DNA from: a virus
Taxonomy: Duplodnaviria > Caudoviricetes
Reading direction: 5' to 3' (one strand)
Length of the DNA stretch: 34,185 nt
Virus record (IMG/VR): IMGVR_UViG_3300020556_000014
Location: 1-34,185 of that record
The notes beneath the pieces were generated by a model. The model saw only the letters and a program-made list of their open reading frames with translations, was not told the DNA's origin and ran no database searches. Positions 4,032 through 34,185 of this stretch are shown here, piece by piece; the first letter of the stretch is position 1; each line of letters begins with the position of its first letter. The position numbers and the translations under genes are program-made.

Positions 4032-4604
4032 CTAACGGCTAAATTGAATCTCAACCTGAAATGGTGCCGAAGTGTTCACATCAAACTTAGCTGAAAGCAC
4101 TAGGGCAGTTTTGATGGCGTTGGTGGCGGTGTCAATGTTCATTCTTTCGCCTACCGCTTCGCTGTAAACATCAGCCATTGAGGTTAAGTAGCTGATAGCG
4201 TAGGGGCTGCCCGACCCAATGCCGTAGGTGAAGTCTTGCGATTGGGAGATTCCTAGATCATTGCCGATTTCAAAGATGTTGCCATTAAAGGCAAGCAAGT
4301 AGGCAAAGCTCGCGCCTTCTTTTTGGTAATCGTAGCCATTGTCTTTGAACGCCTTGATGATGCTCGGAATTACCTTTTTACCCATAAACATCACGGGGTC
4401 TGTGCCATCGTATAGGGGCGGCTTCCAATTATAGGCAAGCACATCGCCAGGTCGCACATCGCCACATACGCCTAAGAGGTACTTGCCAACCTTTACGATT
4501 TTGGGCGTTGAAGGCGAAATGATGCGTTTGTCACCATCGGTGATTTGGCTGTCAGCTCCAAGGATGGCAAAGCCTTTGCCCTGATAAGCCGCGATCGTGG
4601 TCAT
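4032..4604 (-). CDS. Ntn-hydrolase proteasome-beta/HslV-like peptidase
   Basis: N-terminal MTT nucleophile, GADSQ, conserved Lys (PKI), GIGSGS motif. Confidence 0.85.
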   Translation of the reverse strand: MTTIAAYQGKGFAILGADSQITDGDKRIISPSTPKIVKVGKYLLGVCGDVRPGDVLAYNWKPPLYDGTDPVMFMGKKVIPSIIKAFKDNGYDYQKEGASFAYLLAFNGNIFEIGNDLGISQSQDFTYGIGSGSPYAISYLTSMADVYSEAVGERMNIDTATNAIKTALVLSAKFDVNTSAPFQVEIQFSR

Positions 4605-6321: not shown

Positions 6322-7386
6322 CTATTCTGTCGGTTCTTGGCTTGCGCTTAATTTGTAAAACTTAACATTCTCTTTAAGCCTATCAATCCACGGCGCTAAA
6401 GCTACTGCCCTTTCACCGTGTTCAAGTGCCTCTTTTGGTTTGTCTAGGTTGTGGCACGCAATCGCAATTAGATCGTGTGGCAGGTATCCCCAAGCATCTG
6501 ACTCTACAAGATACTCTAGTGGTTGCTGCGTTATTCTCAATGCGGCGTGGGCGTGGGCGTAAGAATCTAGCCATAAGCCCTTTGAATAGTAATGTTGGGC
6601 GAGATCAACCCTTGGTTCTCGACTGCCTGGCGATTCTGCGATGGCTTTAAGTAGCCAAGATTCGCGTTCGGATTCATCCATTTTGGCTAAATAGCGCATT
6701 GAGGCAGCCCGTTCAGGTTTCCAAACTGCCTTTGGCAACTCTAAATGGCGTTTGAACTCTTGTATTGCCTCTGTGTATTTATTGTGAAAGAACAGTTCTC
6801 TTGCGTTGTAAAAGCAATTTCTATCATCTGTTGAATCTTCAAGCACCGATTGGGCGAGCAGTTCAAAATACTGACCCCTTGATTTTGTATCATCAGGGTG
6901 ATGATGGATTTCTAGCTTTGTCCAGGCTTGAACTTCGTTTGCTTTACAAGTCAAAACTTCGTGAACAGGGTGCTTCCACCGGTAATTCTTGCGGGCGTGA
7001 ATCTTATCCCCGCCATAAACTAAGCCAGGTGAGCCATCAGGGTTCCAACTCCAAGTGTATTTATACCTTGGGCGAGTAACTTGGGCTTCCAAAGACTCTA
7101 ATTCCTTGCGCCAGCCTGGTTGAAGTTGCTCATCCATATCGAGAGCAATGCAGTAGTCAATGTCAAGTGGGATTGCGGCAAGGGATGCGTTGCGGGCATC
7201 GTCAAAGCGCCACGGGCTAATGCCAATGTTGATAACGCTGATGCCAAGGGCGGTTGCCAGTTCAACGGTTTTATCTGTCGAACCAGTGTCGGCAATGAGC
7301 AAGAAGTCCGCATCTTTGGCAGAGTCATACCAACGCTGAACGAACTGTTCTTCGTTTAGCGCAATTGTGTAGATTGCTATTTTCAC
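6322..7386 (-). CDS. family 2 glycosyltransferase with C-terminal TPR-like repeats
   Basis: IALNEE, DTGSTDKT, FDDARN, LDMDE (DxD), W..PVHE, then helical TPR-like region. Confidence 0.92.
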   Translation of the reverse strand: MKIAIYTIALNEEQFVQRWYDSAKDADFLLIADTGSTDKTVELATALGISVINIGISPWRFDDARNASLAAIPLDIDYCIALDMDEQLQPGWRKELESLEAQVTRPRYKYTWSWNPDGSPGLVYGGDKIHARKNYRWKHPVHEVLTCKANEVQAWTKLEIHHHPDDTKSRGQYFELLAQSVLEDSTDDRNCFYNARELFFHNKYTEAIQEFKRHLELPKAVWKPERAASMRYLAKMDESERESWLLKAIAESPGSREPRVDLAQHYYSKGLWLDSYAHAHAALRITQQPLEYLVESDAWGYLPHDLIAIACHNLDKPKEALEHGERAVALAPWIDRLKENVKFYKLSASQEPTE

Positions 7387-8757: not shown

Positions 8758-11700
8758 TTATATCTCCGCACTTACGCCGACATAGCCACCTGAGTTTTGG
8801 GCGTATAGGTAATAAGGTCTGAATTGTGTCGCGCCTGTAATGGCACAACTTAAATTAACTGTTTGAGGCGTTGAAGTTACCAACGTGATTAGTGTTACAG
8901 ATATATTATTATTAGCGTTATCAGCTGAAATAACTAATGACGCAGAATAATCAACCGCGCTTGGCGTTGTTCTCATTGTCGCATTAAGTGGAAAAGGTGC
9001 GACGCAAACTGTTGTTGATACAGCCGACCCCAAAGAACTTAAAATATCGTAAGCGCTGTCAGCTGTAACTCGTTGATAATACCGCTGACAAGCAGCAAGT
9101 TCGCCTTGGATGGTGCCGCCAGCGCGCACAAATGGAGTCGCTACTGACCCTAATTCAACCTTAGCTAAAGCGATGTAAAGAATCGAACCGCTTGCCAAAA
9201 CTGATTGCTGTCCAATATAAAATGCTAAACCTTTTGCGGTTGTTGGAATAGTGCCAGTAACGCTCACGCGAGTATAAGCACTTGTTGATGGTGTGTGAAT
9301 TACAGTTGCCCCCGAAACTGTTGTCCAAGTGCCACCTGTTTGAGTGTTGCCTGTCGTGTTGCTTCTAATTGTAACGTTAGTGCTTCCGTTGTAAGTTGCG
9401 TTAGCTTGTAAATAAACACTAAAGGTTACAGTCTGTCCTGCTAACTTTTCAACCTCTGATTGTTCTAAAGCGAATTGCATATTTGCAAAACTTGAACCAG
9501 CAGTTGAAGTTATTTTTACAGCGTTTGTTGCGCCTTCAGGTATGACTGAGGTTTCCTGAGTTAATGAATAAGAAGCTGAACTGAAAACAAAAAATCTGTC
9601 GCTGGTGTAAACGTTATTGGCGGTAAATGCGGCAGTACCGCGTTGCCAAATATCAAACGAACCGCCAGCAATTAAATTGTCATTAGCGGCAGCGTTGTAA
9701 CGAATACCAGTTGCGGTAGTTGAATCAGCGACCAATGATTGACCATTGGCGCCAACCGCCAATCTTGCTACTGTGTCAGCGGCAGTGGCAACAATCAAGT
9801 CACCTTTAGCATCAACTATCGCATCAGGGATAAATGCAGCATCAGATTGCGCAATTGTGTAGGTGTCAACTACTGTAAAAGTACCATAAGCAACTACCGC
9901 CAATGAATCGCCAACGACTGCGCCACTTGCTAGAACAATTGAAGTTCCAGTGCTTGCGGTGTAATCAGTAGCTCGAACAAGCAGCACACCGTTTAGGTAA
10001 ACCTGTTCAGCTCCGACTGTATAGGCAAGAGTAAGTGAGTTTAGATCGGCACCTGAAAATGTTGTTTGTCCAGCGGTGGCAGTGTAAACATAAGTAATAG
10101 CAGCCGTTGAACCTGCGGCACCGGTAGCACCTGTCGGTCCAGTGGCACCATTTGTTCCATTGGCGCCCGTTGGACCAGTTGGACCTGTAGCTCCATTTGT
10201 TCCATTGGCACCTGTCGGTCCTGTCGGACCTGTTGCGCCATCAATTCCGTTAGCACCTGTTGGTCCAGTTACACCCTGAATTCCTTGAATACCTTGCGCA
10301 CCTGTTGGTCCTGTTGCGCCATCTGCTCCATTAGCACCTGTCGGTCCAGTAACACCTTGAATTCCTTGCGCACCAGTTGGACCTGTTGGACCAACCTCAC
10401 CTTGAATTCCTTGCGCACCTGTTGGTCCAGTTACGCCTTGAATTCCCTGCGCACCAGTTGGACCTGTAGCGCCAACTTCACCTTGAATACCTTGCGCACC
10501 CGTTGGTCCAGTCGCACCTTGAATACCTTGCGGGCCAGTAGCTCCAACGGCGCCAGTGTCACCTTGAACACCTTGAACACCTTGAATTCCTTGAATACCT
10601 TGCGCACCAGTAGCACCAGTTGGACCTGCGATACCTTGAGCGCCTGTAGGTCCTGTGGCACCTACGGCGCCTGCTGCGCCTGTTGGTCCAGTTGCGCCAT
10701 CAATTCCCGCAGGGCCAGTGGCACCTGTCGGACCTTGTGCGCCTTGCGCACCCGTTGGACCTGTTGCCCCGGCATCGCCTGTTGGACCTGTGGCACCTGT
10801 GGCACCTGTTGCGCCTTGTGGACCCGTAGCTCCTGTTAAACCAACTGCGATGGTAATAAGTGAAAGAAGTTGAAAATTTGTAAAGTTAGTTGTGCCAGTG
10901 CCGCCTGATGAATCAAGCACAACTGAAAGTTCAACATAACCAGTTAGCAGTGTTGGGGCTGCGGTAATTTTGAACTTTTGAAAGTTGTTGTTGACATCTC
11001 GATCTTGAATAATAATAAAATCATCTGTTTTAAGTAACGCAAGCAAGAAGTCAATATCCTCGCCCAAATCGTCAATGTGATCAATGTTGATGCGTGTTGA
11101 GTTAATCTGTGTGGCATTACCCCAACGAATATCACCCGCACCTGGTCTGCCCGTGGTTGATGACGTGTCTGCTGAATAGTTAAAAATCGTGGCCGAGCCA
11201 CCATTGGCACCTGCGGGTCCTGTCGCACCTGTTGGGCCCGTTGGACCTGTAACTGTTGAGGCAGCACCAGTAGCACCAGTTGGACCTGTTGGGCCAGTGG
11301 CACCTTCAGATGCGGCGGCTCCCGTTGGACCTGTTGGGCCTTCAATTCCTTGTGCGCCCGTAGCACCTGTCGCACCAGTTGGGCCTGTAATTGTTGAGGC
11401 AGCACCTGTGGCTCCCGTAGCACCTGTTGGGCCAACAATACCTTGTGGACCCGTTGGGCCAACTTCGCCTTGAATACCTTGAACACCTTGAATACCTTGA
11501 GCGCCTGTTGCGCCAACTGCACCCGTAGGTCCAGTTTCACCTTGGATACCTTGAGCGCCTGTAGGTCCAGTTACGCCTTGAATTCCTTGTGAACCCGTAG
11601 GTCCAGTTTCACCTTGAATACCTTGTGCGCCCGTTGGACCTGTTACACCTTGAATTCCTTGAGCGCCTGTTGGCCCCGTAACACCTTGGATTCCTTGTGA

Positions 11701-11928
11701 ACCTGTAGGTCCAGTTTCACCTTGAATACCTTGAGCGCCTGTAGCACCAGTTGCGCCGGTGGCACCTGTAGCGCCTGTGGCACCTTGGATTCCTTGTGAA
11801 CCTGTTGGGCCTGTTGCCCCTGGCGGGCCTTGTGGGCCTTGAAGGTTTGAAATAATAACTTCGGCAGGTGAGGCAATTTCAGCAATTACATCAGTTGTGC
11901 TTGATGATACATAAATGATTGAACTCAT
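8758..11928 (-). CDS. collagen-like fibre protein with C-terminal carbohydrate-binding-like domain
   Basis: Two long Gly-X-Y tracts around a globular insert, [18 protein letters not shown] motif, and a C-terminal WQRG...[10 protein letters not shown] domain. Confidence 0.88.
10110..10836 (-). repeat. collagen Gly-X-Y coding repeat tract 2 (boundaries approximate)
   Basis: [12 protein letters not shown] triplets. Confidence 0.9.
11200..11838 (-). repeat. collagen Gly-X-Y coding repeat tract 1 (boundaries approximate)
   Basis: Includes 12-aa units GPTG(A/S)QGIQG(V/E)T. Confidence 0.9.
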
Positions 11929-20683: not shown

Positions 20684-20795
20684 GCGTGGTTCTCGTTTCT
20701 ACTTTGGGAAGCATTGCGCGTTCCAATTGCGGAACGGCGGTAGCGGTTTCCTTTAATTTTACCTTAATTCTTAAAATTCTTTTTATGCGTTCCAT
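20670..20795 (-). CDS. small basic protein (41 aa)
   Basis: MERIKRILRIKVKIKETATAVPQLERAMLPK...; overlaps both neighbours. Confidence 0.55.
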   Translation of the reverse strand: MERIKRILRIKVKLKETATAVPQLERAMLPKVETRTTRGDH

Positions 20796-21460
20796 ATATC
20801 GTGCTGCCTATCATCTAACCAATAGCTCTTTGAGTGAGGCAGTATCGCGCCTGTATTCACATAGATTGGAAAACCAAGTGAACGAACACGGCGGCAAAAT
20901 TGTAAATCCTCGCCAATCCATTCACCGTTGATAGGTCCATCCCAAAACCAACACCAATCCTGCCCTTGGTGTGGGTCGGCATCTGCTCTGATTGCTTCCA
21001 ACACGCTGCGGTGGATTAGTAAACATCCAGTGCCTGCGGCATCTACTTGGAAAATTGAATCTTTATCGTACTTGTTAAGTGGCAAAAAGCCTTCAGGAGC
21101 ATCTTGAAAAATTGTTGGCACTGGTTGCGGGTATGGATAACCTGTTTCAAAACTAGCAAATACCAACCCTGCTACAACTGGGCGTTCTTTATCGTGTGCG
21201 GTTTCAATTAACTTATCAAATGCTTCAACGGATAGTTGCTCATCTGAATCCATCATTAGTAACCAATCGGATTTAGTTTCTAAAAATTGCTTAACTAAAC
21301 GATTGCGTTGCTTTGAAAGTAAACCTGAACCCTTAATTCTAATGAATGGGCCAAGGCGTGCTGATCTTGATTGAGCAACTTGAATTAAACTAAATGCAAA
21401 CCCGCCGTTAACTGTTCCTGGGTCGCAACTGCCAATTGAAACTTTATGTGCTGATTTCAT
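20783..21460 (-). CDS. GT-A fold glycosyltransferase
   Basis: RN.LV..FL...WLLMMDSD (DxD), GTGCLLIHRSV, GEDLQFC.R. Confidence 0.88.
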   Translation of the reverse strand: MKSAHKVSIGSCDPGTVNGGFAFSLIQVAQSRSARLGPFIRIKGSGLLSKQRNRLVKQFLETKSDWLLMMDSDEQLSVEAFDKLIETAHDKERPVVAGLVFASFETGYPYPQPVPTIFQDAPEGFLPLNKYDKDSIFQVDAAGTGCLLIHRSVLEAIRADADPHQGQDWCWFWDGPINGEWIGEDLQFCRRVRSLGFPIYVNTGAILPHSKSYWLDDRQHDIWNA

Positions 21461-29855: not shown

Positions 29856-30205
29856 TAGAACGGTATCCCATCGGTTGAAGTAGCTGATTTGGGTGGGAAT
29901 CCACCATTGCCAAAGTAATCGGGCATCTCTTGGGCAAATAGCCCGAAGTCACGGCATTGATGCTGGCCAAGCACAATTGGACTCTTTGCCCACATCCTTG
30001 CCCCGACCCTTGGCGTTGCCTCAAAGGTTCGCCCTAATCGGTGGATTTGGTAGGTTCGCAACCCGCCAACCTTGGCTGTAATCTCTGCCAAAAGGTTGAG
30101 TGGGGTCGGGTCAAGTTTGGTTGGCACCCCTGTTGAGCTGTATCCAAACCAAATGAGGTTCCCGCAGTTTCGGCAATCAATGGCTTGGAATAAATACTGG
30201 CTCAT
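29855..30205 (-). CDS. hypothetical protein with CxxC...HxC
   Basis: ORF track; ends with DGIPF. Confidence 0.7.
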   Translation of the reverse strand: MSQYLFQAIDCRNCGNLIWFGYSSTGVPTKLDPTPLNLLAEITAKVGGLRTYQIHRLGRTFEATPRVGARMWAKSPIVLGQHQCRDFGLFAQEMPDYFGNGGFPPKSATSTDGIPF

Positions 30206-30231
30206 AGTTCCAATACCGTCATTCTTATTAT

Positions 30232-30286
30232 GCCACCCTTATATAGGGTGGCCTTAATAAGGTAAAAAGTTACCTTAATAAGGTAA
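30232..30286. repeat. AT-rich palindrome cluster, candidate replication origin
   Basis: GCCACCCT-TATAT-AGGGTGGC; CCTTAATAAGGTAA twice (30252-30265, 30273-30286). Confidence 0.6.
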
Positions 30287-30311
30287 TTTTTTATGGTACT
30301 AGAATTCACGC

Positions 30312-32432
30312 TCAATTTGCCACCGACCCTTGCTCCCAATTACCGAAATGATCTGCTGGATACCAGACAGTTGTTCGCCCCATTTCGGATGTTTTGACCT
30401 TGTGATGCCTTAAAGCTGCATCTCGACCAGCCTTCAAACCCTTATCGTCATAACGCTTTCCAAGAATATCTGAGAGCTGTGAGGTGGATAAGCCAGGGTT
30501 GGCAGCAACCACATCAATCCACATATCTTCAAGGCCACGCTTTTTTGCCATTCTTGAATCAACACCGCCCAAGGTCAGCGAACGGGTGGTTTCGTCAAAG
30601 GTGAGCATTTGTTCCTCTTGAAGCACATCTCGCCCATCGGCTGAGAAAAATCTGCCGTCTTGAGTCTTTTTCAGTAGCCAACGCACATCGGCCCAATCGT
30701 CAAGGCGAGTGGCACCGCGAGCGCGGTCAACGCCATTCTCTTGAGCGCGGCCTGTGTGAATAGGTAGAACAAGGTTCGAAACGCCTGCTCTTTCTTTAAT
30801 CACATCCAAAGTATCTAAGAACACGCCAACATCGCTGTTTGAGTTCTCATCACCGCAACCCGTAAAGGCGCGGGCGAACGGGTCTAAAATCCAAGTCTGA
30901 GCATCTAAATCTTTTAGGATAGAAACGGTCAAATCCTCAACCCGCGCAACCGTTAGCGGCAGCCTCTTGCCTCTTAGGTGAACCAAGGTAATCTTGTCAG
31001 AACTCTCAATTGCCACATCATTCATCCACCGGCGGTATTGATTTTCAGAAACTTCATAGTTAAAAATTACAATTCTGCCCTTATGGTCAGGTTGGTCAAA
31101 GTAATTCAGAAACTTCTCGCCATCAGCTAATGATTTGGCTAGTGAGTTGATTAGGGTGGTCTTACCCGCCTTGTATTGGGCTGTAAGGGTCACATTCGCC
31201 CCCGTTGGGAATACATCCTTGATTGTCCACTTAACTTCCTCAATTGGCAGTTTAAGCTCATCTGTGAGGCTGCGAACATAGATTGGCGTGTGGTAATTAC
31301 TTGCCGCTTCCTCGGCATCAAGTAACTTTTTGGCGGTGCGCTTTGCGCGGCTCATTTTGATCTCTTGAGCCGTTAGGTAGTCAATCTCGGTTGAGTCGGT
31401 GGCAGGTACGCCATCCGTTGCGATGATCTCGCCCGTTGTCGGGTTGTATTCGTAATTTGCTATTTCATCCCTGCCCACGCCAAAGCCTAAAAAGCGCAGG
31501 GCTTGGGCAGCGGCCTTGAAATCATCGTGATGATTTAGGTGGGCGTAGGTGGCAAACTTTGAATAGCCTTTTTCGCTTTGAAATGTGGTTGAGGTTGAGA
31601 ATACAAAGAATGTGTCATAGCCGCCGTAGTTAGTAGATGCGCTGATTCCTTCATCTTTATTCGGTCTGCGCCAATAGGTAACTTGGGCTTGGGTGTAAAC
31701 CTTTTTCCAACCCAACGGCTCAAGTATTTCTTCCCAAGTCATTCTTTGGTTGTAATCATCGCCTGGCAGCGCAGGATTGAATTCCCGCTTTGTCAACTCT
31801 TGTTTAGTTATCTCAGACTTAGGCATCTCATCAAAGGTTTTTAAGATTGTAAACAATTCCCACAATTCCTTTTCGGTAATCGTTGGGATGTTCTCAATTG
31901 ACCCTGCAATCATTGTCCAAGATTTGCCGTTGGGGTGGGCAGTGCCGCCTGAAGGTGCGCAGATGCTAAAACCACCAGCCCCGCGAGTTTCGATTAGGCA
32001 GCCGCCATCCTCGCCCGCTTTAGAGGCAAGTTTGGTGTTGCCCTCAATTGGTGCGCCATCAATCTTAACTAGAAAGTGAATTCCCCCCGATGGTGTCATT
32101 TCTGAATAGCCATTGGTCAGGGTTTCCCATAGGTATTCAAGCCCTGATGCCTTCATTGCCTCTTTCGCGGCAAGGTGAAGTTTCTGCTCAATGGCGCGGC
32201 CTTCCCATTCAATCATCAATAGATTGTTTGAAATCGGCCCTGTTATGACACCAAGCCCCTGCACTTGGTCATTGTTAAACCAATTAAGCAGCTCATCTTG
32301 CGTGGGTTGGCGTTCTTGGTATTGCTTCCAAGAGCCAACGCCAGGGCGCTTGCTGCCATCGGTTGCAACAGGCACCACAACAATCCCTTGGGCGGCAAAG
32401 CGAAGGGCGGTGGTTAGGATTTCGTTAGTCAT
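30312..32432 (-). CDS. bifunctional primase-polymerase fused to RecA-like (AAA_25-type) helicase
   Basis: SKRP...WK.YQ, TPSGGIH, ETRG.GG...APS; Walker A AQYKAGKTT, ILDP, HTGR...RGATRL.DWAD. Confidence 0.92.
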   Translation of the reverse strand: MTNEILTTALRFAAQGIVVVPVATDGSKRPGVGSWKQYQERQPTQDELLNWFNNDQVQGLGVITGPISNNLLMIEWEGRAIEQKLHLAAKEAMKASGLEYLWETLTNGYSEMTPSGGIHFLVKIDGAPIEGNTKLASKAGEDGGCLIETRGAGGFSICAPSGGTAHPNGKSWTMIAGSIENIPTITEKELWELFTILKTFDEMPKSEITKQELTKREFNPALPGDDYNQRMTWEEILEPLGWKKVYTQAQVTYWRRPNKDEGISASTNYGGYDTFFVFSTSTTFQSEKGYSKFATYAHLNHHDDFKAAAQALRFLGFGVGRDEIANYEYNPTTGEIIATDGVPATDSTEIDYLTAQEIKMSRAKRTAKKLLDAEEAASNYHTPIYVRSLTDELKLPIEEVKWTIKDVFPTGANVTLTAQYKAGKTTLINSLAKSLADGEKFLNYFDQPDHKGRIVIFNYEVSENQYRRWMNDVAIESSDKITLVHLRGKRLPLTVARVEDLTVSILKDLDAQTWILDPFARAFTGCGDENSNSDVGVFLDTLDVIKERAGVSNLVLPIHTGRAQENGVDRARGATRLDDWADVRWLLKKTQDGRFFSADGRDVLQEEQMLTFDETTRSLTLGGVDSRMAKKRGLEDMWIDVVAANPGLSTSQLSDILGKRYDDKGLKAGRDAALRHHKVKTSEMGRTTVWYPADHFGNWEQGSVAN

Positions 32433-33138
32433 TGTTTGCCTCTTTTGGATAAGGCAAAACCTGGTAACGCAATTTTTCTAATAATTCCAATTTTCGTTTC
32501 CCCCTGGCGTTAAAATAAATGTAACGGTGCTTTCTTGAGCGTTCCTTGAAGTAAACATTATCTTTGCCAAATTTCTCAACTACTTGTTTATTGGTTAAAC
32601 CGTTGGCATAAGTTGCGTGGTGCTGATTCTCTAAACCTTTGACTTTTGGGTCAAGAAACTTGGCGCTTAACCCCGTGTAAATGAAATTAGTTGCCTGGTA
32701 AACAACTCCAATATGAGCTTGAGAGCTGTCAGCGTAAGAAACAATGATTTCCCTATCTAATCGCTTGATTGTTCTGCCAATTAGGTAACTTTCACCGTTT
32801 TTCGGAATTGAGTCATCAACCCACAAGCGATTTAGTTCATAGACATTAAACTTTTCGCTTTCCCCGCAAATACCTTTTAGTAATGTTGAACTTGGGCTTA
32901 CGCCATAAGTTACAACGCCAACTGGCATCAAACTTGAATAGTTAAACAACCCAAAAGCAAAACTAACAGGGCATTTTCGGTGCAGATAATGTTTTTCAAC
33001 AACAATATCCATTGCCAAGCTGTAAGAAATTGGCTCAATCCAATAATTTTGGAGCGATGAGGTCGGAATTGAACCGCCAATTGCAGGTTGGAATACCTGC
33101 CGTGTTTCCATTACACCATCACCGCAAGTTGCCAACAT
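32425..33138 (-). CDS. mom: Mom-family (GNAT-fold) adenine DNA-modification enzyme
   Basis: HYLHR..P.SFAFGL, GVVTYG, ELNRLW...PKNGES..I, IVSYAD....H.G.VYQATNF.YTG, KHRY. ATG 33138 follows the upstream stop and AAAGGGA. Confidence 0.82.
   Translation of the reverse strand: MLATCGDGVMETRQVFQPAIGGSIPTSSLQNYWIEPISYSLAMDIVVEKHYLHRKCPVSFAFGLFNYSSLMPVGVVTYGVSPSSTLLKGICGESEKFNVYELNRLWVDDSIPKNGESYLIGRTIKRLDREIIVSYADSSQAHIGVVYQATNFIYTGLSAKFLDPKVKGLENQHHATYANGLTNKQVVEKFGKDNVYFKERSRKHRYIYFNARGKRKLELLEKLRYQVLPYPKEANND
33050..33125 (-). tRNA. tRNA-Gly(TCC)-like element, non-canonical, inside the mom CDS
   Basis: GCGGTGA TG GTGT AATGGAA ACAC G GCAGG TATTCCAA CCTGC AATT GGCGG TTCAATT CCG(A)CC TCATCGC T CCA: four stems, U73 discriminator, encoded CCA. 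Confidence 0.85.
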
Positions 33139-33145
33139 TATCCCT

Positions 33146-33283
33146 TTACCATTCCAACGCCATCCAAAAGATGCCGAAGTCAATTGATAGTGTCCACTTA
33201 TCAATCACAATTCCCAACCCAAAACCTTTGCGCGTTCCAAATGACATATACAAACCATCTTTGATTCTGATTTCTTTCACCAT
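33146..33283 (-). CDS. hypothetical protein (45 aa, aromatic-rich)
   Basis: MVKEIRIKDGLYMSFGTRKGFGLGIVIDKWTLSIDFGIFWMALEW; TAATG coupling. Confidence 0.65.
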   Translation of the reverse strand: MVKEIRIKDGLYMSFGTRKGFGLGIVIDKWTLSIDFGIFWMALEW

Positions 33284-33453
33284 TAGTCTTTACCCCAACC
33301 CGTTCCCTTAAAATGAACGGCAGGTGCCGCCCAAACCCGTTCCATTGCTATCTCGCAATTGCTGCATCCATATAGAATCTCAGCTTCATCCACTTTGCGA
33401 AAGATTGGCATTACCACTTCGCACTTTGGGCATTTGTAATCAATGATTGGCAA
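33283..33453 (-). CDS. FmdB-family zinc-ribbon protein (56 aa)
   Basis: MPIIDYKCPKC...CSNC...MERV.AAPAVHFKGTGW. Confidence 0.85.
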   Translation of the reverse strand: MPIIDYKCPKCEVVMPIFRKVDEAEILYGCSNCEIAMERVWAAPAVHFKGTGWGKD

Positions 33454-33580
33454 GGTAGCCTTCTTTCCTTAATATCGCAGCAATCACCTTCGCCATTCGC
33501 CAAGGCGTATCAGGCAAAGATTCTTCATAAGATTTCCAAAGCGCAAAGGCGATGGCACCCTCAAGGCTATCGCGGCTCAA
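33440..33580 (-). CDS. hypothetical protein (46 aa)
   Basis: TTG start overlapping the MTase end; MSRDSLEGAIAFALWKSYEESLPDTPWRMAK...; fills the gap. Confidence 0.45.
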   Translation of the reverse strand: MSRDSLEGAIAFALWKSYEESLPDTPWRMAKVIAAILRKEGYLANH

Positions 33581-34178
33581 AGTCTAACTCGCCTTCTTTA
33601 TCTCTTAGGGCAAATTCAATCCGCGCCTTAGCAATTGGCAAGTATTCAGGCGTTAGCTCAATTCCAATAAAGTTAAATCCTTCATACATCGCAGCTTTAC
33701 CTGTTGAGCCTGAACCAAGGAACGGGTCAAGCACAATGCCGTTTGGCGGTGTTACAAGCCGCACTAGGTATTGCATCAGCGATGTTGGTTTGACGGTTGG
33801 GTGAGTATTTGCCCGCGCCGCTTTTACTGCACCATAAGCTGCGGCTGCTTTTTTCAATCTTTGAGAATCTTCATCTTCTCCATAATTGTCTAAAGATCTA
33901 CCGCCACCGCCTTGAGTTTCTTTAACCTCAAACCCATCCAACCCCTCATTGCGATCTTTCTTGCTTGCCTTCGCGCAGTAAAAGAATCGGGCAGGTTCGC
34001 CAAGTAAGTCAGCAACCTCATCGCTGCCATCGTGAATGAAGTTGGCAGGGAAGCGGCCAGCGGTGTTCTGTTCCCATCCACCTGAACCGTCACCGCCACT
34101 TGCGGTGTCTTGCGTTCCAAATGTTGCTGTTCTATTTCCAGCCGATGAATCATCGCCATCAGCTCTACCAACCCGCGA
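33567..34178 (-). CDS. DNA methyltransferase, C-terminal part (whole protein about 398 aa with 1..585)
   Basis: GRFPANFIHDGS, RFFYCAKAS, HPTVKP, SAM-binding DPFLGSGST; in frame with 1..585 after removing the 7-nt overlap. Confidence 0.93.
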   Translation of the reverse strand, partial: SRVGRADGDDSSAGNRTATFGTQDTASGGDGSGGWEQNTAGRFPANFIHDGSDEVADLLGEPARFFYCAKASKKDRNEGLDGFEVKETQGGGGRSLDNYGEDEDSQRLKKAAAAYGAVKAARANTHPTVKPTSLMQYLVRLVTPPNGIVLDPFLGSGSTGKAAMYEGFNFIGIELTPEYLPIAKARIEFALRDKEGELDFEPR

Positions 34179-34185
34179 CCCGTCA
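34179..34185. repeat. 7-nt terminal overlap with positions 1-7
   Basis: CCCGTCA at both ends. Confidence 0.85.

Follow-up and report, generated by a model that had tools for sequence, protein, structure and literature searches.

Why should the gene of a DNA-modifying enzyme be read straight through a sequence that looks like a glycine tRNA? The question is raised by the mom gene of a tailed phage (Duplodnaviria; Caudoviricetes; IMG/VR record IMGVR_UViG_3300020556_000014), whose 34,185 nucleotides (nt) as a whole are the window referred to below. An earlier note, made from the letters of the window, had described a 76-nt cloverleaf at 33125-33050 inside the mom frame, and ARAGORN, Rfam, folding and in-frame reading all bear this description out. 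The answer that we consider probable, though well short of certain, is that this element would be Mom's private, non-ribosomal glycyl donor, processed from the mom transcript. The Mom protein of phage Mu takes the glycine from Gly-tRNA-Gly, whichever of the three isoacceptors is offered, and attaches it to adenine, according to the available text of Silva et al. (2026; PMC13219725); what the note had said of Mom's donor is thus confirmed for the Mu enzyme.

What kind of RNA is this? ARAGORN finds a tRNA but leaves its anticodon unassigned (tRNA-???). The element scores 33.4 bits against the Rfam tRNA model RF00005 (gathering score 29) and 91.6 bits against model R1, whose alignment includes it. 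The cloverleaf is the fold of the isolated 76-mer (-26.6 kcal/mol), and the 106-nt region alone folds no better than its shuffles (z -1.33); as the single sequence is uninformative in this comparison, the case for the cloverleaf is carried by its homologues. The element holds G1-C72, C2-G71, G3-C70, U73, TCC and CCA, as the note had read them, and this phage's copy also retains U8, the D-loop GG and the T-loop TTC. The determinants of bacterial glycyl-tRNA synthetase (GlyRS), given in the available part of PMC9976931 as G1-C72, C2-G71, U73, C35 and C36, are all present on the cloverleaf together with the CCA. The "full tRNA-Gly" of the note thus stands as regards identity bases and CCA but not as regards shape: the T-stem is interrupted by a bulged A that is conserved while its flanking pairs covary, the anticodon arm has a stem of six pairs and a loop of 6 nt in place of the canonical five and seven (the extra sixth pair is kept in 49/51 aligned elements), and the start codon may lie in the D-loop. 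The affinity of EF-Tu for a tRNA is set by the first three T-stem pairs, as stated in the portions available of PMC3239215 and PMC7826273. The element is a structurally altered glycine-tRNA-like RNA and no canonical tRNA.

This raises the question as to whether the element is peculiar to one phage. Among the 80 closest viral Mom homologues screened for a 5' element, 14 carry one in frame. A first DNA pattern, which fixed glycine features (TTCCA, CGCTCCA) and whose identity counts are therefore left unused, returned at least 119 viral loci, and among the matches listed 109 adjoin a Mom-like open reading frame (ORF). A second pattern, with loci overlapping those of the first, fixed only the bulged T-arm and the CCA; it also returned at least 119 viral loci, with about 330 estimated in the collection. 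With the element-coded residues masked, a Mom-like ORF is found in the fetched flank of 112 of the 119 matches listed, of which 51 are fused in frame to the 5' end of mom (5'-type) and 56 follow the Mom C-terminus (3'-type), the remainder being five with mom otherwise placed and seven without a match, several of these on short flanks. All 14 divergent partner ORFs picked across subfamilies pass Pfam PF25680. In the prokaryotic genome collection mom lies near 46 of 95 pattern matches, and 36 of the other 49 are, by reading, not tRNA-like. When the search starts from the protein, in 301 genomes of the class of G001 (a Dehalococcoidia metagenome-assembled genome), the element accompanies 15 of 17 strong Mom hits, or 11 of 13 leaving out G001, itself found via the element. 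At one viral locus (L244) it forms a separate gene, convergent with mom, that has a sigma-70 promoter of its own (12/12) and a terminator. On the Mom tree the 5'-fused label needs eight changes, five of them forced by starred branches. The element is one of a widespread family that accompanies mom in many phages.

Covariation was scored on 51 dereplicated 76-nt 5'-type elements, with relatedness kept in. In this set 96.2% of the cells are paired and two-sided changes occur at 16 of the 22 pairs; the pairing score is matched by 0/500 shuffles, and controls slid along the alignment reach 42-53%. The note had held that covariation and an association with mom should be visible among homologues, and both are. 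At positions left free by the pattern, G1-C72 and C2-G71 are each present in 91/91 distinct elements and U73 in 88/91; the anticodon CC is kept in 98/100, one of the misses resembling a parser error. Positions 33, 34 and 37 vary, chiefly in 3'-type copies (U33 in only 15/47), the anticodon loops are mostly 4-6 nt long, and non-glycine triplets such as ACC occupy the anticodon position in some relatives. The protein-selected set keeps GCG...CGC, U73 and CCA in 15/15 elements and the bulged A in 14/15, again between covarying pairs, and several of its members lack the TTC of the T-loop, like the staphylococcal non-proteogenic (NP) tRNA-Gly. Differences at the three codon positions amount to 0.13/0.19/0.22 for the element and 0.27/0.18/0.58 for the Mom core, a contrast between a near-flat element and a third-position-biased core that is clear in two subfamilies and weak in a saturated third. 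Protein selection on the element-coded peptide is rejected by these near-flat differences, and the comparison of sequences indicates that the element evolves under selection as RNA, not as peptide. The peptide itself appears unimportant, because the codon differences are flat, some relatives read through the element in another frame, and the corresponding residues 1-23 are predicted with low confidence.

On the enzyme side, the product of the gene matches Pfam PF25680 (Mom) at 1.1e-40 and 139.9 bits (curated cut-off 27.1), PHROG 1384, and the Mu Mom structure 8bv8 by sequence (phmmer, 1.7e-14). The best fold match of its predicted model in the PDB is also 8bv8 (E 2.3e-12; next best 4.6e-5). 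This model, built on an alignment of 35 of the 44 intended rows, has a mean predicted local distance difference test score (pLDDT) of 84.3, where a single-sequence model reached 33; residues 1-23, with pLDDT <50, are probably disordered in it. The protein is a true member of the Mom family by profile, sequence and fold, as the note had supposed. The product expected of such an enzyme acting with Gly-tRNA is N6-carbamoylmethyl-dA. Among the seven Mu residues tested (R111, S124, D149 and R151, which are essential, and H58, Y59 and Y159), six are identical here in the phmmer alignment, namely H58, Y59, R111, S124, D149 and Y159 in Mu numbering.

Whether this protein is made by reading through the RNA depends on where translation begins. 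As the note had stated, no ATG or GTG lies between the CCA and the Mom core; the first TTG and ATG past the CCA are codons 41 and 43, within the predicted helix 39-49 and after strand 32-36. Since the first downstream start codons thus fall after strand 1 and inside helix 1, the reading frame is probably translated through the element. Stops occur in none of 58 dereplicated 5'-type elements in the Mom frame and in 51 and 47 of them in the other two frames; this count is to some extent circular, since an open frame was a condition for entering one of the two sets and L082 had been left out. The element measures 73, 76 or 79 nt in 58/58 5'-type cases, with the same length class in 25/40 3'-type copies, and 77-nt fused forms are present in the genome sets. 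L082, L170 and L217 are exceptions with a start codon of their own after the CCA. L335, L360, L370 and L427 start at an upstream ATG of their own and read through the element in another frame, so that the nesting recurs and the peptide does not. The placing of the element inside the coding sequence holds in so far as the frame very likely runs through it, but an in-frame ATG in the D-loop had been missed. This ATG is the only start in L010-L014, because an in-frame stop lies just upstream of it, and it may be the real mom start of this phage, which would leave only element positions 15-76 coding. An in-frame ATG lies at most 33 nt upstream in 32/37 elements without a D-loop ATG and in 7/21 with one. 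In the window, the upstream ATG is preceded by a weak Shine-Dalgarno (SD)-like purine run (anti-SD duplex -5.3 kcal/mol). At L238, an 11/12 sigma-70 promoter-like sequence (1111-1083) ends 7 nt before G1 of the element (1076-1001), whose acceptor strand contains GGAGGT and whose D-loop supplies the sole ATG start; with such a layout the whole translation-start region would lie within the tRNA.

How might such an RNA serve Mom? Host RNases would cut the element out of some mom transcripts, and the freed RNA would be charged by host GlyRS. Its T-stem bulge and shortened anticodon loop would withhold it from EF-Tu and from the ribosome, and Mom would pass its glycine to adenines of the phage DNA. 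As a transcript cut into tRNA would lose its start codon, each transcript would give either enzyme or carrier, which as a by-product might cap a toxic enzyme. We infer each of these steps: that translation runs through the element, that RNase P and 3' processing release it, that it is charged and escapes EF-Tu, and that this Mom uses it. The donor role is suggested by the GlyRS identity and CCA that are kept, by the decoding features that are lost, by the position of the element against either end of mom, and by the separate promoter and terminator of L244. Because Mu Mom accepts all three isoacceptors, the kept anticodon CC points to GlyRS, and because 56 of the 119 loci listed follow the Mom C-terminus and the L244 copy is a separate gene, the element likely acts in trans. 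A motive for a dedicated donor is offered by the sequestration of ordinary Gly-tRNA by EF-Tu away from FmhB, described in the available part of PMC7826273.

The RNA also appears to outlast the enzyme beside it. Four phages (L145, L106, L095 and L151) share the element (99-100% over the first 76 nt) and the neighbouring genes with the window, whereas their Mom cores are only 34-35% identical to that of the window; DNA identity ends at or just past the CCA and returns near the Mom 3' end. L119 and L142 form a second such pair, with identical elements and different Mom subfamilies. From these alignments, the RNA element seems to stay in place while the Mom enzyme is swapped between related phages.

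Several observations weigh against the donor role. Of the 80 closest Mom homologues, 66 lack a 5' element, and among these a canonical tRNA-Gly lies within 1.5 kb in four and a weak match in two; the Mom of the window itself falls in a clade of 44 rows, 39 of them without the element, on a FastTree phylogeny with long branches. About 13 of the 49 Mom-less matches in the genome collection look, by reading, like true members whose fetched flank contains no mom. The locus counts and covariation statistics ignore shared ancestry. The 5'-fused elements keep U33 in 36/42 and U34 in 37/42 cases, more often than the 3'-type, which the donor model leaves unexplained. In this phage's Mom a Ser aligns with each of Mu R151 and W48 (phmmer alignment), so that its activity is not assured. 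As Mu Mom works with host tRNAs, the element would be optional, and the "self-contained module" of the note does not survive: host GlyRS and RNases would be needed, and most of the closest homologues do without the element.

The same data may be read in other ways. The element could be a cis-regulator only, a mimic that hides the ribosome-binding site, invites RNase P or binds Mom or GlyRS and is never a donor. Mom is lethal if overexpressed and is tightly regulated in Mu, according to the part of PMC7261163 available; most of the internal SD-like stretch and of the upstream ATG is base-paired in the predicted fold, acceptor strands are more strongly SD-like in elements that depend on the D-loop ATG (median -7.5 vs -5.1 kcal/mol, p=0.045 uncorrected), and a similar model has been proposed for selC nested in selB (PMC8124441, as far as its text is available). 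Copies located 3' or free-standing share the design yet cannot gate initiation, and the full GlyRS identity and CCA are retained; this reading is the chief rival of the donor role, but an unlikely one. The note had left open whether the fold is a donor or a substrate mimic acting on the mRNA; the comparison across loci speaks for the donor, since copies of this RNA are found behind the gene and standing alone as well.

That phages keep the element as a homology cassette, a handle for recombination or integration by which Mom alleles are swapped, would fit the exchanges described above, with DNA identity ending at or after the CCA, but sequence identity would suffice for this, with no need of compensatory pairing or a conserved bulge; the idea seems very unlikely, and the swaps are better read as a consequence than as the purpose of the element. 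The element might also be charged and serve some other task outside the ribosome, for instance by decoying tRNA-targeting defence enzymes or supplying a different transferase, and merely travel with mom, as the family members whose fetched flank shows no mom and the many close Mom homologues without the element would allow. Its place against or inside mom, at one end or the other and in many parts of the Mom tree, leaves such a passenger a slender chance. The conserved T-stem bulge, the extra anticodon-stem pair, the freedom of positions 33, 34 and 37 and triplets such as ACC in relatives render it highly improbable that the element is an ordinary ribosomal tRNA-Gly topping up the host pool and overlapping mom by chance, even though this copy matches the Rfam tRNA family with TCC, U8, D-loop GG and TTC T-loop intact.

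The reading as Mom's glycine carrier can be set against systems already described. A 76-bp tRNA-Gly-like "pseudo-tRNA" contained in the opening 150 bp of a mom homologue was reported from Dehalococcoides ssrA islands by McMurdie et al. (2011; PMC3146451). In its length, its likeness to tRNA-Gly and its place within mom it resembles the phage element; its first anticodon base is variable ("DCC"), and the available text of that report proposes no function for it. In comparison, the present element resides in a tailed phage of probable actinobacterial host, and 3'-located, free-standing and other-frame forms as well as allele swaps, found here, go unmentioned in that available text. Elements in the class of G001 match R1 at 46-80 bits, keep the bulge in 14/15 cases and adjoin a ParB-like gene (by its translation); the phage element and the pseudo-tRNA were compared by description, and the G001-class genomes are not equated with the records of PMC3146451. 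Mu Mom (8bv8; PF25680) shares family and fold with the phage Mom, from which it differs at R151 and W48; its assays used tRNAs of E. coli, and word searches through the main text and two supplements of PMC13219725 brought up no tRNA-like element or phage tRNA gene. Judged from the available parts of these sources, the nested element (2011) and the Gly-tRNA donor of Mu Mom (2026) are thus already in print, and the novelty implied in the note was overstated; in the open-licence PMC and bioRxiv literature, no paper was found that links a mom-nested tRNA-like RNA with Mom's Gly-tRNA donor.

The staphylococcal NP1-3 tRNA-Gly, which serve FmhB, FemA and FemB, keep GlyRS identity with an altered T-arm and anticodon loop, like the phage element, and in both cases the partner enzyme is an aminoacyl transferase of GNAT fold. 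As far as PMC7826273 is available, the NP tRNAs bind EF-Tu weakly through A-U pairs, are encoded by stand-alone chromosomal genes and feed the cell wall, whereas the phage element carries a bulged A, lies within the enzyme's own gene and would supply DNA. In place of the NP-type A49-U65, U50-A64 and A51-U63 it has G-C, G-C and C-G plus the bulge; by analogy it may work like an NP tRNA, and it is not a member of their lineage. A further parallel is selC, the gene of tRNA-Sec, nested in the selB reading frame, for which an either-or processing model was put forward (Mukai 2021; PMC8124441, in the part available). There too a tRNA lies inside the gene of a protein that binds it, but it is ribosomal, sits at the 3' end, and the case is bioinformatic only.

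Features of the mom locus in the window (all coordinates are window positions)
Feature	Position	Strand	Evidence or remark
tRNA-Gly-like RNA of 76 nt, in frame with mom	33050..33125	-	ARAGORN, Rfam, folding, model R1
Anticodon arm, 6-bp stem and 6-nt loop, TCC at 33092-33090	33083..33100	-	arm parsing, alignment
Bulged A in T-stem, between standard-numbered pairs 50-64 and 51-63	33063	-	alignment, fold
Discriminator U73 and encoded CCA; also apparent Mom allele-exchange point	33050..33053	-	sequence, phage comparison
Whole mom reading frame from upstream ATG, 237 aa	32425..33138	-	reading frame and structure model
Mom catalytic core, GNAT fold, residues 32-237	32425..33045	-	PF25680, PHROG 1384, 8bv8
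Upstream candidate start ATG	33136..33138	-	13 nt before G1, 7 nt past stop of upstream ORF
SD-like GGTGAT in acceptor 5' strand, mostly paired in cloverleaf	33118..33123	-	anti-SD duplex -9.1 kcal/mol
D-loop ATG, in frame, second candidate start	33109..33111	-	only start in several close relatives

The 34-kb record, classed as linear, encodes terminase, capsid and WhiB genes, and because of the WhiB gene its host is probably an actinobacterium. The mom gene is flanked by a small ORF and a primase-polymerase/helicase gene. Two DNA methyltransferase-like frames on the same strand (1-636 and 33567-34185) each run off an end of the window, as if one gene had been split by the opening of a circular genome, in which case a methyltransferase would lie just upstream of mom. 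Two ORFs upstream of mom is an FmdB-like zinc-ribbon gene (33283-33453); a Com-like activator role for it is unsupported by its family matches, which are Zn_ribbon_8 (below cut-off) and a PHROG of FmdB-like proteins. Elsewhere the window encodes a proteasome-subunit-like protein (4032-4604), two family-2 glycosyltransferases (6322-7386 and 20783-21460) and a long collagen-like (Gly-X-Y) protein (8758-11928). Promoter and terminator counts in window positions 30000-34185 are at chance level. The element has no blastn match among 50,697 cultured phage records, and four sequencing runs contained only small shares of it, all as contigs; one of 160 nt from a lake metatranscriptome (32980-33121, across the CCA junction, depth 3.7) shows neither ends nor transcription and is unused as evidence.

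Within the wider family the RNA takes further forms. Six 3'-type elements of 69-70 nt (L230, L240, L267, L272, L298, L306) have nearly lost the D-arm and keep acceptor, anticodon CC and bulged T-arm; three others (L253, L262, L369) keep acceptor and bulge and have lost the anticodon CC. At seven loci (L086, L104, L106, L119, L120, L137, L147) the mom gene with the element is followed by a paralogue from another subfamily, so that one RNA might serve two enzymes. As for element-less Mom homologues, L031 (2602-2675), L033, L035 and L036 have a canonical, bulge-free tRNA-Gly(TCC) about 500 nt downstream on the opposite strand, and in L071 (683-761) and L072 (1358-1436) the Mom ATG is closely preceded by a degenerate tRNA-Gly-like sequence with ACCA at its end (R1 30 bits). 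The Mom of Bacillus phage BC-6 aligns from residue 5 yet carries no element. Seven element-less homologues (L049, L051, L059, L060, L063, L066, L067) have N-terminal Q-x-x-L/M-F peptides, which we take to resemble sliding-clamp-binding motifs; the element-coded peptide often reads Q-L-x-F at the same place.

A larger picture, in which phages and islands widely carry non-ribosomal tRNAs for DNA modification, the transcript is message or carrier, the bulged A acts as an EF-Tu antideterminant and Mom variants are exchanged at the CCA junction, seems to us evenly poised between right and wrong. The donor claim is directly testable, as both a GlyRS-coupled Mom assay and EF-Tu competition exist. If it is true, the element left unexplained in 2011 would gain a function, and there would be an answer as to how Mom competes with EF-Tu for Gly-tRNA in the infected cell. 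A one-base EF-Tu antideterminant, if it is one, would be useful for orthogonal aminoacyl donors. With the mom element, bacteria would have a second example of a tRNA encoded within the gene of the very protein that makes use of it, and dedicated non-ribosomal tRNAs would extend from staphylococcal cell-wall synthesis to the modification of DNA.

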